Shown here: one piece after another, positions 3,598 through 13,846 of the stretch
How the letters are laid out: each line of letters begins with the position of its first letter
How positions within the stretch are numbered: position 1 is the stretch's first letter
Virus record (IMG/VR): IMGVR_UViG_3300032213_001988
Coordinates: 67,519-131,518 of that record
Direction: 5' to 3' (one strand)
DNA from: a virus
DNA: 64,000 nt
Notes under the pieces: generated by a model
Seen by the model: only the letters and a program-made list of their open reading frames with translations
Database searches by the model: none
What the model was told of the DNA's origin: nothing
Translations under genes and position numbers: made by a program

Positions 3598-4656
3598 TTA
3601 CTCTTCCTCCGTAATAGGTCCACCAACAACCCACGCGTTACATGTACGAGATGCCGCACACTTGAAATCTAAAGCTTCGCAGTACCCAAGCTCTGCCGCG
3701 TCAACCGCGTCCCAGGCGTTATCACTTGAGGATCCACCTTGCTCAATACCAGTTGTAATACAGTCAAGCATCTTAGGAGTACGAATAAACATTACACAGT
3801 TTCCACATGTGCTCTTTCGTGCCTCGTCACCAGAGACTCCCCAGCGTGTTCCTTTATCGTCCCAGAACTCATCGTTTGGCTCGTTTGGATTTAGTGGGCC
3901 GTAGCCTGCGTTCTTAATTGCATATTCACGATTTTCAAGATTAACAACAATGTCCTGTGTTGCGGGAGGGCAGTCACCATCTGCAGCTGCAGTAATAGGC
4001 TCGGACTCTTCGTCCTCGTATTGCGCGGTGTCTTCCGTGGTAAGAGTTTCATCATTACCCTCAGCCATATCGTAGATTTTTATAAACTTAGGTGTTACCT
4101 CATGAACCTCTAGCCCGTCGATTGACTCGTCGTCTGCAGGTAGCTTAAACCATCCGCGATTTGAGCGGGTGTACATTCCAGCCTCTGATGAGTAGATTAA
4201 GTATTTAACCTCTTGAGACTCGGTGTCAACTGCTGCGTAAAGATTATCCTCTGGAGCAGGCGCGTTGGGAGTAAACGCTAGTTTTACATCTGCCATGTAC
4301 ATCTCCTCTAGTGCCTCAGCAGGGACGGTAGTCCGAAGGCTTGAAGCCCATCTACCATCTGTGTCTTGAAATGCTCGTACTGTATAAATCTTACCGTAAC
4401 TTGAGAAAGTTATGTCGCCTCTCGACTCATTTACACGCACATCTTCAGGCCGAACAAGTGGGTAGTAACGTATGCCGTCAATAGTTGAGGCTCCTGCGTG
4501 AGGCTTGTCGTCAATCATCTCGACGTGAACTCCGTAGACCGGTTGAAGCATGACCTGTCCATCTTCACCTTTAACTGTCATAACCGCAGGACCGGCTAGA
4601 AAGCCTTCATCAGTCTTCCACGCTGCCTCATCTGTAAACTTCAATTTATTTATCAC
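3598..4656 (-). CDS. Head-operon hypothetical protein with C-terminal Cys-rich module
   Basis: 352-aa ORF, GTGA overlap with the upstream gene. C-terminal CPPATQD...CGNC...GYC...FKCAASRTCNAW module. Confidence 0.8.
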   Translation of the reverse strand: MINKLKFTDEAAWKTDEGFLAGPAVMTVKGEDGQVMLQPVYGVHVEMIDDKPHAGASTIDGIRYYPLVRPEDVRVNESRGDITFSSYGKIYTVRAFQDTDGRWASSLRTTVPAEALEEMYMADVKLAFTPNAPAPEDNLYAAVDTESQEVKYLIYSSEAGMYTRSNRGWFKLPADDESIDGLEVHEVTPKFIKIYDMAEGNDETLTTEDTAQYEDEESEPITAAADGDCPPATQDIVVNLENREYAIKNAGYGPLNPNEPNDEFWDDKGTRWGVSGDEARKSTCGNCVMFIRTPKMLDCITTGIEQGGSSSDNAWDAVDAAELGYCEALDFKCAASRTCNAWVVGGPITEEE

Positions 4657-7600
4657 GACTTAGATGCTCCTGTTCCGGTAATGATAACCTCCTCGATAGG
4701 ACGTCCTCCGATGTAGTTAATTCCTCTAGCCTTTAGCCCCTCAATGACGCCCACATGAACTTCCTTTGAGACTACCATCACGTCAAGATCTTCCCAGGAG
4801 AGTCTTTGCTTAAACATAACCTCGTAGGCTCCAACCTGCGCAGCAGATATAACGTCCTTGTTCTTTGAGCGCTTGCCAAAGGCATCGGTGTAGTTTGCAT
4901 AGAAGTCTAAACGTTGATACACCTTCTTAGGGTCAAAGTATAGTGTAGGCACCCAGTCGGTAGTTCCGTATCTCTTTCTATCAGCACTTTTTACCGGGCG
5001 AGTAAACACGTAGTCAGCGCCACCAGTTCCAATATCAGCCGCGCTTGACTGACCGTTAACTCCAATTCCTTCTGTCCAGCGTGTTGTTGTTGAGAGAAGG
5101 CCTCCCTGTGGGTTATCAATGAATCCTACTATCCAGTCTGTCATTGCCTTTACTTTTTGCTCGTCACTCATGCTGTATTCAAGAACGCCAGGATTACGAA
5201 GGCCGTGACTCATAGCCTCTGGCTTGCCAGTTGCCTCCCAGATCTTTAACGCGCCTTCCTCAGAAAGGCGATATTCAATTCTTCCTGATGGGCCTGTCGT
5301 TACGATAACGTCGTCTACAGTTAGTCCCCACTTGTCCTTTACCTTTTCAAGACTTTCTGTTCTTGCCGCACCCTTAGGGTTTGTGTTCGCATCTGTCTTA
5401 GCATCAAAGATACTCATCAAGCGATTTTCAATAAGAACCTTTGCGTCTGCTGGTGTTGCAGGACGCACCTGACTTACTCCTGCTAGAGCTAGTGCGTTAG
5501 CAATCTGATCATCGGTGGCACCTGCTGGCGCTTGAATCTGCACCGTGTTGTGAAAGGCGCGAGCCGGAGCTCCACCGTATCCTTTTGAGAATGTGTCAGA
5601 CGCGTCTGGATTAGCACGATGAATATAGATAACAATTCCGTCCTTTGTAGTAATCTTATAAGTTCTTCCTGTTGGGCTTTCATAGGCTGTCTCAGATGCA
5701 GATAGATCTCCTACTCCGTCCTTGCCTACAGTTATTCTTGGAATACGTAGCTTACTGACTTCTATACCTGCGTCTGCTCTTTCCTGCTCAGTCATGCTTG
5801 CAATATCAGCGACTTTTCTCTTACCGGCCCAGTTCGTAAGCTTAAACTTTAGTTGAATGCCATCCACGCCTTCAGCGTTACGCACGTGCATAACTCGAAC
5901 ATCTAGGTCTTCAATTGAGTCTGCGTCAACAGCTGCAGACGCTCCACGCATTGCAGCTTTTTTGTCACCTGTGTCAAGAGCCTTTGCTATTGCGTCTGGA
6001 AGGGCAGGTACTGTCTCAAAGTTAGATAATGACCAGTCAGCTGGGCTGTCAACAATTACTGGCTCAGCGCCAGCGCCAGTTGCCTTTGTTGTAGACTTTT
6101 TAGTTGTAGGTCCCTTAAAGTTTTCATCGAGTGTATTTGTAGATTTTAGGGTCTTTCCTGAGCGCCACTTTACTACGCCATTTCCAAAGTCTACGAAGGC
6201 GTAGTTGTCCTTATTGACTTTTAGCACGGTACCAATTACGCCGTCCTTGTCTGCAACCTTTACTCCTGCAAAGATCTGATTACCAGTAGAATCAGCAATT
6301 GCTGTAAACCCATCAGGTACTTCAAGTTCATCAGTTGCGTCTACATCTTCTATAGGTTCTGACTCGGTACCGAAAGGCTCAGACTTGTTTTGAGCTATCT
6401 TTTCAAGCAGCGCATCATTTTCTTCCTTGGTTGGCTGACGCCACTGAAATACCTCAATGCCGTTTCCGCCAGGCTCAAAGAAATCAGGTTTAGAGTCAGG
6501 AGTGTAATTTGTCTTTTTCTTTGCATCAATGATGTATACAGTCTCGCCATCAGGGGTTGCAGCAATCATTCCGTCTTTCTCATGAACTGCAAGGATCTTT
6601 CCACCCTCTGGCATTCCGTATGAGAAAAGCTTAACTAGTTCGTTTGCTGCATCATTAAGAATAGGCTCGGTTGGGAAAGGAGTACTTGGAGATGGCTTGG
6701 TTGCTGCTGGCGTTACTTTTTCTCCAGCTGCAATTTCATCGCTAATATCAACTATGCCAGGAGCGACTATGTCGGTAATTGCTGAGATGACGTCTGCGTC
6801 TTCTGCCTCAGACCAGTCAACAAGACCTTCCTCATCTATAGCATCACGTATCTGATCTGCCTTTTCCTTAGAGATCTTAGTGCCTTGAGCGTCTAGTAGA
6901 TCTAGTATCATCTTTGAGTGAGCTTGGATTTTTTTATTATCGGTGTAGATGTCACCGTAGAACTCTTCAGGCACAAAGTCTTCATCAAGAACTGACTTGT
7001 ACTCTTTTGCAAAGTCGTCCATCTTGTCAAGTGGTACCTCTACTGTAATTTCATCAACGCCATCAACATCTAACTTAGAATCAACTACATACGGCAAAAC
7101 TTCTTCGTATCCAGCAGGTCCGTTACTATTAGGATTAAAAGGACGAGTCCCGTCGTGAACAAACGACACGCGAACTTTCTTACCATCTTCAGTTAGTTGC
7201 GCAGTTGGTTCAAACTGACCAATGTCATCTTGCGGAGTTTCTGGTGTTGGCGCTTCTGGAGCTTCTGGCTCGGGAGCGTCCGGAGCCTCAGGGGCTTTTG
7301 GGCCTTCGCCACCACCGCCATCGCCATCAATAACTGTTAGATACTTAGTGCTAAACACCTTGGGTTTGCCACCATCTGACATCTTAACCCAGACGTAGCC
7401 TGAGTTCTTGTCGTAGCGTGAGAGTACTCCTTCAAGAACCTCACCCTTCTTCTCATAGCGAATTTTTGCGCCTGGCTCAATAGGCGTTCCATTTTTATCC
7501 TTATAAGGATTTGTCACAGACTCAGTTGCGACTGGCTCTGGCGCTTCAGCAGGCGCTGTTGGCTCTGGCGCTGCAGGAGTGCTCTTATCATTATCTTCTT

Positions 7601-10600
7601 CAATGTAGTCTTTTAGAACGCGTAGTTGCTCATCAATATCATCTACGTTATTCATTAGACCAATATCATCTTTATCCCAGTCATAGGTGTCAAGCATACC
7701 GCGTAGCTCTTCAAGAACTCCTGGTAGCTCTTCATCAGAGATCTCGCCGTTACGCCAGTCAACTAACGCAGTGTCGATTTGATCTGCAACTGCTTGGAAC
7801 GCCTTTCGGTATACTGCAAGTTGTTTTTCGTCATCAGCGTACTCTTGTGCCCAACCACCAGCAGTATCAAGTGCGCTGTCAATCTCTGCTTTCTTTCCTT
7901 CGGGAGTTTGAACTGCCTCTGGGTCTGTGTCCTGCTCTTTGCTAATATCTGCGTTGTCAACTACAATAGATGTGTCCTCACTAAGGAGGTCGTATCTATC
8001 AAGAATAAACTGGCGACGAGCCTTTAGCTTATCCTTTATCTCTTGCGCTGCTTCTGTGTCTGTGACAATTCCATCAACCATTGAGTCAATGTCATCGTTT
8101 GATATGTCAAGAAGCTTGCGGGCTGACTCCTTCTGTTGCTCATCGGTCATTGAACCAAATACAGCAGCAGACTGTGGATTCATGCTAGGGTCACGCAGCG
8201 TGTCTAGTTCATTGACATCATTGCCAAACAAGGATCCCTTAGGTTTACCCATAGCGCGGAACAAAAGCGCTCCACCTGGGTCCACACGGACTGGATTACC
8301 ACTGCCATCGGACATTACGTTATCAAATCCTAAACCTGCAACGTCCCAGTTTCCAAGCCACGCATCAACTGCAAAGCCTTCCTGCAACTTAGCAAGATAC
8401 TCTGGGTTGTTTAATTGTTCCTGTAGATCTTGTTTTGATCCAATAATGTCTGGAGAGAACGTCATCTTAACTCCGTCATCTCCACTGCCAATTCCAATGT
8501 CCGCTGCATCAACTTTTAGAAGTTTATAGAACGCGGCAGCAAGAACTTCGTTCTGTGCGTGCAACTCTGACTTAGGCTTCTTTACATAGAAGCGATTTCC
8601 TTCAGCGTCTTCGTAGAAGCCACCTTCATTAGAACCAAGCTGTGGGCCAACCTTCTTCCAGCCTTCCATGTCGTACTCTGTTGAAAGTTCTTCAACTATG
8701 GAGTTAACTGGGTTGTCTACACTTTGTTCTACAGGCTCGGCTTCTTCATCAGACGCCTGTGCCTCTGGGTCTGCGTTTGCAATATCATCAAGCAACGCAT
8801 TTGTGTCAACACCTTGAATCTGCAAAGCATCACGAATAAGTTCTACGGCAACAGTGACTTCTTTCTCGTCTTCCCACTCAAGAACAACCTCGCCTGAACC
8901 ATCTTCAATTGCTTGTCTAAATGATTCAGCGAGAACGTCACGGTCGTAGCTGCGTGCAACAGCATCGGGCTTGTCTTCAAAATCGTCAGGGAAATCCTGT
9001 TCTGCTCTTGATTCGTATCGAGCAGGGTCAATCTTGTGGTAGCCTTCTGGCATCTCTGGAGATGCGTTATCCTTTATCAAAAGTTCATTGTATGAAGTGT
9101 CAAGTCCTTCGAGTACGGCATCGCGCTTTGACAGCATTTCAATTTCAACCTTAAAGACTTTTCTACCACTTGAGGTAGTTGTCTCTTTAACTTCTACTAT
9201 CTTAAAGTTTCCTAGCATTCTGTGCTCTTGCTCGTTAAAGGTAGATATCGTTGTTAGGTCAACTGATCTTCCTTTGTTAGGCTTTACTGTGAAGACGATT
9301 GATGTCTTATCAGTCGAATTAGAAAGCGCGCCTGCAAAGATCGAGGCGTTAATATCACTCGTTGAGAACGAACGCGCATCAAATGCTAAAACGTCACCAT
9401 TCTTAATTTTTTCTATAAGAGGGCTGTCGTTTGGCACCTGTAGGCCTCGGTGCAATGACACCTGGTTGTATCGAGAGGACTCAGTCATAAGTCTAAAGAA
9501 AGCGCCTGCAAATGATGTGTCGCTGTCAATAGATTCTCTTCCATCGATTAAAGCCTGCTTTGACTTAATAAGATCATTTATGCTTCCATTTTTGTCAAAG
9601 AACTCTTTTACCTCTGACCACTCAGCAGAGCCGTTGTACTTTTTAATTGCAGCGTAGACGCCGTTGGCTAGTCTAGTCCTTTCAACGCCATCACTAATTC
9701 CCTCATCAAGAGCAGTGATAGTTGCCCACAGAGCTTGGAATGCTTGCTTCTCTTCAGGAGTAGCGTCTGGGTTGAGCGCACCTCCGATATAGTCATCTAG
9801 TAATTTTTCAAGATCCTCTGAGATAGCAGAGTCGTTGTCATTTACAGGATTTCCCTTTGCTTTTCTAATTACATCTGCAAGTTCTACAATCTTAGGGTTT
9901 GGCTCGCCGTTTCTGTTGAGCTCCATTAGCTGTGATACAAGTGCAGATCCTGAGTCTGCAAGCGCAACATCAACGTTTGCTCTTGCGATAGCCTCTGCGT
10001 CCTCTGGGTCAATCGCGTCAAGCAATGGCGTTTCAGCTTGAACGTTCTCCTCCTTGCGAAGAGACTTAAGAAGGTCTTGGTTCTTGCTCTCGCCTAAGCC
10101 CGCGTCGTAGAGTTGCGCGAGTAAAAGGTCAGCGTCGTATCCTTGCTTCTTAAGCGCAAGATAGATTGCCTCTACTGGAACCCACTCTTCACCGTTATTA
10201 AAATCAAGAGCGCCAACACCTAGACCAACAGGTTTAGCTACTGGCTTCTTTTTCTTAGGGCCAGGCTTTCCTGGTTTCTTTTCAATAGGATCACCGTTGT
10301 CATCAACTTCTTCGTCGTCGCCATCATCCTCAAGGAGATCTAGCGCGTAATCTTTCTTACCAACGATACCTTGGATAAAACCGTCAACAAGCGCATCGGT
10401 TCCAAACTTGTTTGCAATAACTTCTGGATCATCTGAGAAGTCAGGACTCATCTCATCGTCAACGCGACCTTCAGGCTCAAATGCCTCAGGAGCTTTTAAC
10501 TTCCACGCACCTTCAGGAGGCGTAAGCTTTGAGATAACAGATGTTTCAGGTTCAGCAGCTGGAGCTGAGGGAGCTTCAGGGAGTTTTGCGATAACTTCGT

Positions 10601-13372: not shown

Positions 13373-13846
13373 TTAGAAACCGTAGTCTGATTTTTCTTCT
13401 GGTGTAAGGAATGCGTTTAACTGCCAACGCCACTTCTTGTGCATGTCAATACGACCACCGATGAAGTCAATAAGCCCTTGCTCGTTACTAGCATCTGCAA
13501 TATCAAAGGTCATGTTAAGAGACGCCAGCAAGATGTCATTTGCATCGTAAAGGTCCTTACACATTGCCATAGCGTTTTGTCCAACCTGCGCATCTTGAAT
13601 ATCTGCCGAACGAGCAAACTCAACAAGACGGTAAGGAGACGGAGAACCTAGCTTGAGAATCTCTTCTGCTGTAGGGTCAATAGCGCTATAGATGTCTTCA
13701 TAGATCTCGGCAAAGAAGTCATGAAACTGAGCAAAGTCACTACCAACAACATTCCAGTGATGTCCTTGAGCCTTAAAGTACATAACAACTTCGTTACCTA
13801 GCAGCTTCTTCAGCGCTTCAACGAGTTGTGGATTTTCTATGGCCAT
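13373..13846 (-). CDS. dps: Dps/ferritin-like protein
   Basis: HHWNVVGSDFAQFHDFFAEIYED...DPTAEEI Dps signature with ferroxidase His/Asp/Glu residues; 157 aa. Confidence 0.9.
   Translation of the reverse strand: MAIENPQLVEALKKLLGNEVVMYFKAQGHHWNVVGSDFAQFHDFFAEIYEDIYSAIDPTAEEILKLGSPSPYRLVEFARSADIQDAQVGQNAMAMCKDLYDANDILLASLNMTFDIADASNEQGLIDFIGGRIDMHKKWRWQLNAFLTPEEKSDYGF

Follow-up and report, generated by a model that had tools for sequence, protein, structure and literature searches.

The 64,000-nucleotide stretch analysed here (the window) comes from an uncultured phage whose 131,518-bp virus record has direct terminal repeats; it makes up the second half of this record (IMG/VR record IMGVR_UViG_3300032213_001988, positions 67,519 to 131,518) and carries a giant open reading frame (ORF), P0001, whose C-terminal domain is the subject of this study. 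This domain very probably has an ADP-ribosyltransferase (ART) fold related to that of DarT, a toxin with which bacteria stop phages from replicating by ADP-ribosylating DNA. The phage probably injects this DarT-related enzyme, which would use nicotinamide adenine dinucleotide (NAD), into its host. That the enzyme is active and delivered by the virion is considered likely, while the whole explanation, with a nucleic acid as the target, falls slightly short of an even bet.

Fold of the C-terminal domain

An earlier note on this DNA, made from the letters alone, had assigned a DarT-like ART of the H-Y-E (His-Tyr-Glu) class to positions 4653–5260 and had suggested structure prediction and comparison as a check. 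This span, which equals residues 2340–2541 plus the stop codon, coincides with the ART-fold domain delimited by structure comparison (Table 1). The 226-residue domain modelled alone reached a predicted local distance difference test score (pLDDT) of 91.0 and a predicted template-modelling score (pTM) of 0.88, and a 497-residue module modelled with 40 relatives reached 88.8 and 0.90, respectively. In a Foldseek search with the domain model, the top eight rows were all DarT chains (Thermus, E. coli C7, Thermosipho and M. tuberculosis; E 6.5e-4 to 2.9e-2, TM-scores 0.42–0.48), with cholera, pertussis and Scabin-type ARTs ranking next; the larger 497-residue model gave the same order of structural matches with lower Z values. 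The best viral fold matches were uncharacterised proteins of a mycobacteriophage, of giant viruses and of an iridovirus, IIV6 422L (prob 0.96). As modelled, the domain is an ART fold, with DarT clearly the nearest among solved structures and with the degree of likeness expected of a distant relative; the non-ART fold that the earlier note had allowed for did not appear.

Conserved residues of the predicted active site

Residue conservation was counted in 116 relatives, mostly 25–50% identical. The motifs SHGL, GGLLS, DYVF and YEVMFKQRLSWEDLDVMVV, from which the DarT-like assignment had originally been made, are all present in that order, and this pattern is not a chance resemblance; H2358, Y2423 and E2486 are kept across the relatives. 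On the His/Arg side, H2358 is retained in 114/116 sequences, R2400, G2404 and D2415 in 116/116 each, and S2411 in 115/116. The middle strand keeps Y2423 in 109/116 and an aromatic residue at position 2425 in 116/116. The block R-L-D-F-Y-A-N-x-x-D-x-x-G, which in the model occupies, and continues beyond, the strand immediately preceding the Glu strand, is kept at R2456 (106/116), D2458 (104/116), N2462 (105/116), D2465 (116/116) and G2468 (116/116), and the Glu strand at E2486 (114/116, with Gln in the other two) and K/R2490 (114/116).

Judged from the sequences, this conservation is the pattern of a putative active site with a fixed substrate pocket rather than that of a decayed domain. It bears directly on the possibility that the domain is a catalytically dead ART fold with a structural or NAD/ADP-ribose-binding role in the capsid or in ejection. 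Head proteins do include enzyme domains that are inactive, and the PBECR domain of Mu F is one of them (PMC5512222). However, retention of the presumed catalytic His and Glu in 114/116 relatives, together with five more polar residues that are invariant or nearly so, is the pattern expected of an active site under selection, and such a dead fold is therefore regarded as very improbable.

Sequence relationship to DarT

The relationship was examined at the profile level with the DarT of enteropathogenic Escherichia coli (EPEC; NC_011601), its close relatives and 20 diverse members of the DarT family that were matched in 401 Pseudomonadota genomes. Alignment by hhalign of the 116-sequence family alignment with close DarT2 sequences only resulted in Prob 25% and P 7.6e-4; alignment with the diverse DarT profile of 36 sequences resulted in Prob 86% and P 5.2e-6 over 125 columns, and control DarT alignments (reversed or block-shuffled) gave P 0.056–0.52. 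The signal came mainly from the Glu strand onward, where 41 columns alone reached P 1.2e-7 and Prob 94%. In this part, YEVMFKQ-LSW-DLDVMVV-SKE…L…GI aligns with DarT QAE.L…PW..I..I.V…, and E2486 falls on E170 of EPEC DarT, the equivalent of E152 in DarT1 and E160 in DarT2, which are catalytic-null mutation sites (PMC11543638).

Tandem DarT-family ORFs, one strong (about 175 bits) and one divergent (70–98 bits), were seen in two bacterial genomes, one of Enterobacter (G001:C1:1972765-1973963) and one of Gemmatimonadetes (G003:C84:28192-29395).

The broad DarT alignment shows [YF]H.T on strand 1, G-G-L-x-S after the first helix, then IG…I..RR, YVPFYF, F[TS]..[NH]A and QAEFLV…VPW..I..I.V, so that the DarT pattern quoted in the earlier note (the strand-1 His, G-G-L-x-S, YVPFYF and the QAEFLV…VPW..I..I.V stretch) proved accurate. 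Two registers compete for the middle part of the phage domain. Register 1 is that of the full-length alignment, which is significant; here the partner of DYVFT is the later FVFTD strand of DarT, and that of RLDF is the IDW motif. The middle region alone gave P 0.032. In register 2, that of the N-half alignments (P about 0.1) and also the arrangement proposed in the earlier note, GGLLS pairs with G-G-L-x-S and GG-DYV-F-T-P with GG..DYVPFYFTP. In the model, four strands separate the His strand from the Glu strand, and DarT may also have four, a count that was read from its sequence rather than from a structure; if this count holds, register 2 would lead to one-to-one pairing of the strands and would place N2462 at the base-contacting His119/Asn104 position of DarT.

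The functional residues of DarT to which the phage domain can be compared are the catalytic Arg (R51/R52), with D54 in addition in DarT1, in the NAD-binding loop; H17 of DarT1, the NAD-binding His of strand 1; and the base-contacting His119/Asn104 at the start of the ADP-ribosylating turn-turn (ARTT) loop (PMC11543638). H2358 lies on a predicted strand (40–44 of the domain model), at a distance from the beginning of the structural alignments that agrees with H17 of DarT1; the two residues, which hhalign did not itself pair, may therefore be equivalent. The invariant R2400 and D2415 and the near-invariant N2462 sit in regions that match the NAD-binding loop and ARTT residues of DarT, a pairing by region only, and two non-significant N-half profile alignments give R2400 differing partners in DarT.

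Searches with other sources were negative. ART-PolyVal (PF18760) gave no match at E up to 1 in the six frames of the genome and none by hmmscan, and ADPrib_exo_Tox (PF03496) likewise had no match in the six frames. The domain, used as a single sequence and as two profiles, met only spurious helical matches among PDB sequences, and the ESM Atlas returned only unnamed clusters with scores near chance level.

A large family at the ends of giant phage proteins

When 1.84 billion cluster representatives (50% identity) were searched exhaustively by HMMER with the last 299 residues as the query, 565 related proteins were detected at E≤1e-3, 86 of them at E≤1e-30. Almost all of these are 1,400–7,000 amino acids long, with the match at or close to the C-terminus, and among the 99 relatives of at least 1,400 residues, 66 terminate no more than 30 residues from the ART module. 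The conserved unit spans about residues 2050–2535 and comprises a curved-sheet subdomain, a helical linker and the ART domain; in relatives of 2,373–2,544 residues, the C-terminal domain is 94–98% identical. A kinase-like module accompanies the ART module in 84 of the same 99 relatives, and the region with the R-S-E motifs, a second ART-like set upstream in the giant protein, is present in 41.

The family is essentially unannotated: its members are named “hypothetical protein” in the sources, save for a few names that are evidently wrong or refer to another module, and the precomputed Pfam matches fall only on other modules (PF03496, PF00929, GNAT and ATLF). The extra modules found in relatives are PF03496, PF00929, GNAT, NUDIX or ParB_N. 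The giant protein itself and its ART domain had no match in Pfam (for the domain, at E up to 10), PHROGs or PADLOC, and for the giant protein the PDB sequences likewise yielded nothing.

Two relatives occur in named phages. In Actinomycetia phage DSL-LC01, the module belongs to a 3,289-residue protein encoded just upstream of the capsid genes, and in Pseudanabaena phage Pan1 it forms the C-terminus of a 927-residue “head morphogenesis” (MuF) protein; the Pfam MuF domain was detected in 2 of the 41 relatives scanned. Apparent free-standing short forms (320-residue “proteins”) come from contig fragments of 1.0–1.4 kb and are therefore no evidence for stand-alone genes. A single-protein scan of 185,579 species genomes, which detects close relatives only and is silent on absence from prophages, returned no relative, and megablast against phage records found nothing.

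Position of the giant gene in the head cluster

The order of genes on the minus strand is TerL, portal, a ferritin/Dps-like protein, a 384-residue ORF, the 2,541-residue giant and a 352-residue Cys-rich ORF, followed by a 1,615-residue protease/virion-structural-like protein and the major head protein and, farther on, by the major tail protein and a head-tail adaptor. The slot of the giant gene is the one in which phages carry MuF-type and other internal head proteins, and the same cluster position is found in phage DSL-LC01. The gene thus lies within the head cluster, as those of polyvalent and MuF-type virion effectors do, and it shares with these effectors an architecture of several shuffled modules, since residues 1–350, 700–1050, 1200–1440 and 2050–2535 recur in differing subsets of relatives. 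Packaging is argued for because the gene lies between those for the portal and the major head protein, and because the same module ends MuF proteins elsewhere.

The kinase-like module (residues 1200–1440) had no match among PDB sequences. The R-S-E region gave no Pfam match in the giant protein itself; PF03496 is present in some relatives, one of which aligns over residues 686–1058 of the giant.

The 352-residue ORF overlaps the TGA stop codon of the giant gene with its GTG start (GTGA), an arrangement of translational coupling. Its C-terminal half is Cys-rich (CPPATQD…CGNC…YCEALDFKCAASRTC), and its C-terminal 228 residues are 46% identical to the product of a DSL-LC01 gene annotated as “high potential iron-sulfur protein”; it had neither a Pfam nor a PHROG match. 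As an immunity or hydrolase gene it is not evident, and it is instead a conserved Cys-rich protein of the head cluster. The ferritin/Dps-like protein (PF00210, E 2e-17) encoded between the portal and giant genes is an unusual component of a head cluster.

Table 1 Features of the giant gene and other genes mentioned in the text (positions are those of the window unless marked as genome)
Feature	Residues	Position	Strand	Basis or comment
Giant ORF P0001	2,541 codons/amino acids	4653..12278	minus	Open frame; multi-module polyvalent-type protein of the head-assembly cluster
Second ART-like motif set, R-S-E type (LHRGL, FSTS, NEQEH)	942-1019	9222..9455	minus	Motifs located in sequence
Kinase-like module	1200-1440	7959..8681	minus	Motifs YVKKPK and GNWDV read from sequence
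Curved-sheet alpha/beta subdomain	about 2092-2270	5469..6005	minus	Found together with the ART domain
Helical linker and small beta-hairpin	2271-2340	5259..5468	minus	Always precedes the ART domain; conserved RPAT…D…L.EN motif; high-confidence model
C-terminal ART-fold domain	about 2341-2538	4665..5258	minus	Structure comparison
SHGL	2357-2360	5199..5210	minus	Sequence reading
His2358 codon	2358	5205..5207	minus	Candidate NAD-ribose-binding His, first core strand
GGLLS	2392-2396	5091..5105	minus	Sequence reading
Arg2400 codon	2400	5079..5081	minus	Invariant Arg between GGLLS and DYVF
DYVF strand (Y2423, F2425)	2422-2425	5004..5015	minus	Candidate Tyr strand of the H-Y-E motif
R-L-D-F-Y-A-N-x-x-D-x-x-G block	2456-2468	4875..4913	minus	Most conserved stretch; probable substrate-side (ARTT) region
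YEVMFKQRLSWEDLDVMVV	2485-2503	4770..4826	minus	Sequence reading
Glu2486 codon	2486	4821..4823	minus	Predicted catalytic Glu
352-residue ORF		3598-4656	minus	GTG start; Cys-rich C-terminal half
Ferritin/Dps-like protein		13373-13846	minus	PF00210
Thymidylate-synthase-fold enzyme		genome 48256-49134; locus L005:12259-13134	minus	PF00303; Asp at the ThyA Asn177 position

Proposed role and its alternatives

In the proposed mechanism, the giant protein would be made together with the head proteins, packed in the capsid and released into the host alongside the DNA, as for T4 Alt and for MuF-fused or polyvalent effectors. Its C-terminal domain would be a competent ADP-ribosyltransferase of the H-Y-E class, representing a distant unannotated branch of the DarT (DUF4433) lineage. 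Host NAD+ would be bound via the strand-1 His and the loop with R2400 and D2415, and Glu2486 would transfer ADP-ribose to a target held by the RLDFYAN..D..G region. As this target, a nucleic acid is the best guess, and the likeliest form would be the one known from DarT, a base of single-stranded DNA, here of the host. Host replication would thereby be stalled, or host nucleic acid marked, when infection begins.

A nucleic-acid target is favoured because the two closest structural families, DarT and Tpt1, act on DNA and RNA, because the substrate-side block is invariant across relatives of only 25–35% identity, which suggests an invariant substrate, and because the R-S-E set suggests a division of labour: with another type of ART set already present in the polypeptide, the C-terminal domain would be expected to act on a target of its own. 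The same three observations speak against the view that, with delivery unchanged, the domain is a protein-directed mono-ADP-ribosyltransferase which, like T4 Alt or Bxa, modifies a conserved host protein (RNA polymerase, a translation factor or a defence protein) for takeover of the cell. Both nearest families have nucleic acids as substrates, the Alt/VIP2-like motif set is already supplied by the R-S-E region, and an invariant substrate block would be unusual for effectors that track variable host proteins, although a universally conserved protein would be compatible with it. At the same time, most characterised virion or MuF ARTs (T4 Alt and Bxa) modify proteins (PMC5512222, PMC11699363), and a protein target is a serious, if doubtful, candidate.

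An enzyme that acts on DNA and is produced during phage DNA replication raises a genuine problem of self-protection. The observation in the earlier note that no macrodomain antitoxin is visible in the window holds for the complete 131.5-kb genome, in whose six frames the Macro, NADAR and ADP-ribosylglycohydrolase (ARH) profiles found nothing; as positive controls, the same profiles had matches in 9, 3 and 7 of 14 genomes, respectively. An antitoxin could be dispensable because the enzyme would be made late and perhaps be inactive in cis, whether through the subdomain in front of it or up to its maturation by proteolysis. Alternatively, the phage DNA itself may be chemically different. Both cis-inhibition by the attached subdomain until maturation and chemically distinct phage DNA are possible forms of self-protection. 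As for the latter, the thymidylate-synthase (TS)-fold enzyme of the phage (PF00303) reads RSNDVWLGAAYDF, with Asp where E. coli ThyA has Asn177; Asp at this position marks relatives that are specific for dCMP, T4 gp42 among them. Near the TS-fold gene lie genes for a dCMP deaminase, a dUTPase_2-family enzyme and a C5-methyltransferase homologue; two putative glycosyltransferases of the phage had no Pfam match. The Asp-type TS-fold enzyme together with the deaminase, the dUTPase_2-family enzyme and the methyltransferase homologue suggests that the phage DNA may carry modified cytosine, which is plausible but unproven.

A more far-reaching version of the proposed mechanism, which we hold to be unlikely as a whole, is that the injected DarT-type enzyme ADP-ribosylates unmodified host DNA bases and stalls host replication and repair within seconds of entry, while the phage's own genome, in which a modified base made through the TS-fold Asp-type pathway would replace cytosine, is exempt. 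If true, the phage would be turning a bacterial anti-phage weapon, ADP-ribosylation of DNA, to attack, and base modification rather than an antitoxin would let the enzyme tell self from non-self.

The lack of a reversing hydrolase or immunity gene in the genome would also suit a domain that acts mainly as an NAD+ glycohydrolase, depleting or cleaving host NAD+ or destroying NAD-derived immune signals on entry, with no transfer to a macromolecule. ART folds have repeatedly turned into NADases in conflict systems (PMC9503650), and a 2026 preprint reports an ART-fold Rhs toxin clade of NAD(P)+ glycohydrolases (bioRxiv 10.64898/2026.01.26.701734). However, a few injected molecules are poorly suited to emptying a millimolar pool, the large invariant RLDFYAN..D..G block and the conserved attached subdomain suggest recognition of a macromolecule, and the closest relatives are transferases; a primary NADase function is accordingly rated as quite improbable.

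Several observations weigh against the proposed DarT-related, injected, nucleic-acid-directed enzyme. The Pfam DarT model (PF14487/DUF4433; cut-off 22.5 bits) had no hmmscan match to the domain at E up to 10 and none in the six-frame search of the genome, while the same search scored 181 bits on the EPEC DarT gene (NC_011601) as a positive control. The TM-scores reach only 0.42–0.48 and the identity to DarT structures only 10–14%. The Arg and the base-contacting His/Asn of DarT cannot be mapped confidently, given the N-half P of about 0.1 and the two assignments of the middle strand. Net charge and isoelectric point (pI) do not separate the family from DarT (median pI 5.8 vs 6.6). The MuF anchoring domain (PF04233) had no Pfam match in P0001, virion presence is deduced from gene position only, and neither activity nor target is readable from sequence; the preference of most characterised virion ARTs for proteins, mentioned above, points in the same direction. 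Of the original DarT-like H-Y-E assignment, the ART fold nearest to DarT1/DarT2 and a significant profile match with the catalytic Glu aligned were borne out. Because that model is unmatched and the DarT residues are unmapped, “DarT-like” is used here as a label for fold and distant homology, not for family membership, and room is left for a protein target or an NADase.

Comparison with known systems

DarT1 and DarT2 (PF14487/DUF4433; PDB 8BAQ, 7OMV, 7OMU and 7YK3) are single-stranded DNA ADP-ribosyltransferase toxins of DarTG. Unlike these, the phage domain lies below Pfam detection and is 10–14% identical to the DarT structures; it forms the end of a 2,541-residue protein of the head cluster, in which an additional conserved subdomain precedes it, whereas DarT is a free-standing toxin of 200 residues; it has no adjacent DarG or NADAR partner; and it is encoded by a phage, whereas DarT belongs to a bacterial anti-phage system. 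The Tyr of the H-Y-E motif, located on the strand before the Met helix, is Y71 in DarT2 and Ser in DarT1, and the ARTT region of the phage domain would be shorter than that of DarT if DYVF is the Tyr strand. The RNA 2'-phosphotransferase Tpt1/KptA (PDB 7YW4) belongs to the H-H-h clade, which has no catalytic Glu, whereas the phage family keeps a Glu that aligns with that of DarT.

Polyvalent proteins and head-packaged ARTs were described by Iyer et al. 2017 (PMC5512222), and the viral ART families listed by Iyer et al. 2022 are N4-like, PART, ORF28 (DarT-related, in arthropod viruses), p0068, Alt/VIP2 and Mod (PMC9503650). With the head-packaged ARTs (T4 Alt, ART-PolyVal PF18760 and the N4-like ART; PMC5512222, PMC9503650), the protein studied here shares the form of a giant multi-module product of a head gene with ART modules predicted to be injected, but its C-terminal domain matches neither PF18760 nor PF03496. 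The ORF28 family of baculo-, asco- and iridoviruses (PMC9503650) likewise consists of virus-encoded DarT relatives with an unknown target, but its proteins are small, free-standing and restricted here to arthropod viruses; the likeness of IIV6 422L to the phage domain is a fold match only. In Bxa, a MuF-linked prophage ART of Bacteroides stercoris (PMC11699363), an ART also forms the C-terminus of a polymorphic toxin scaffold of the phage head (MuF) type. However, Bxa is a promiscuous protein ART guarded by the immunity protein Bsi and the ADP-ribosylhydrolase BAH (PMC11699363), whereas the phage genome has no hydrolase gene and the gene downstream of the giant encodes the conserved Cys-rich head-cluster protein.

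A DarT-related module in phage head giants is not among the ART families of PMC5512222 and PMC9503650, and a full-text literature search for “DarT-like” and “phage” also gave no such description. The DarT-related family, with at least 565 clusters at 50% identity, ends phage head giants, usually together with a kinase-like module, and would mean that DarT chemistry enters the cell ready-made, as cargo of the phage. Should DNA or RNA prove to be the target, host shut-off by this route would be new, and the family would offer further ADP-ribosylating enzymes with base specificity, a kind of enzyme in which genome editing with DarT2 has raised current interest (PMC13368585); if the target is a protein, a widespread and unstudied family would still be added to the repertoire of injected effectors. 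The conserved residues H2358, R2400, D2415, N2462, D2465 and E2486 are available for mutation. In relation to the known systems, the theme of delivery and the enzyme superfamily are already established, and what is new here is a widespread, unannotated DarT-related family on the side of the phage.

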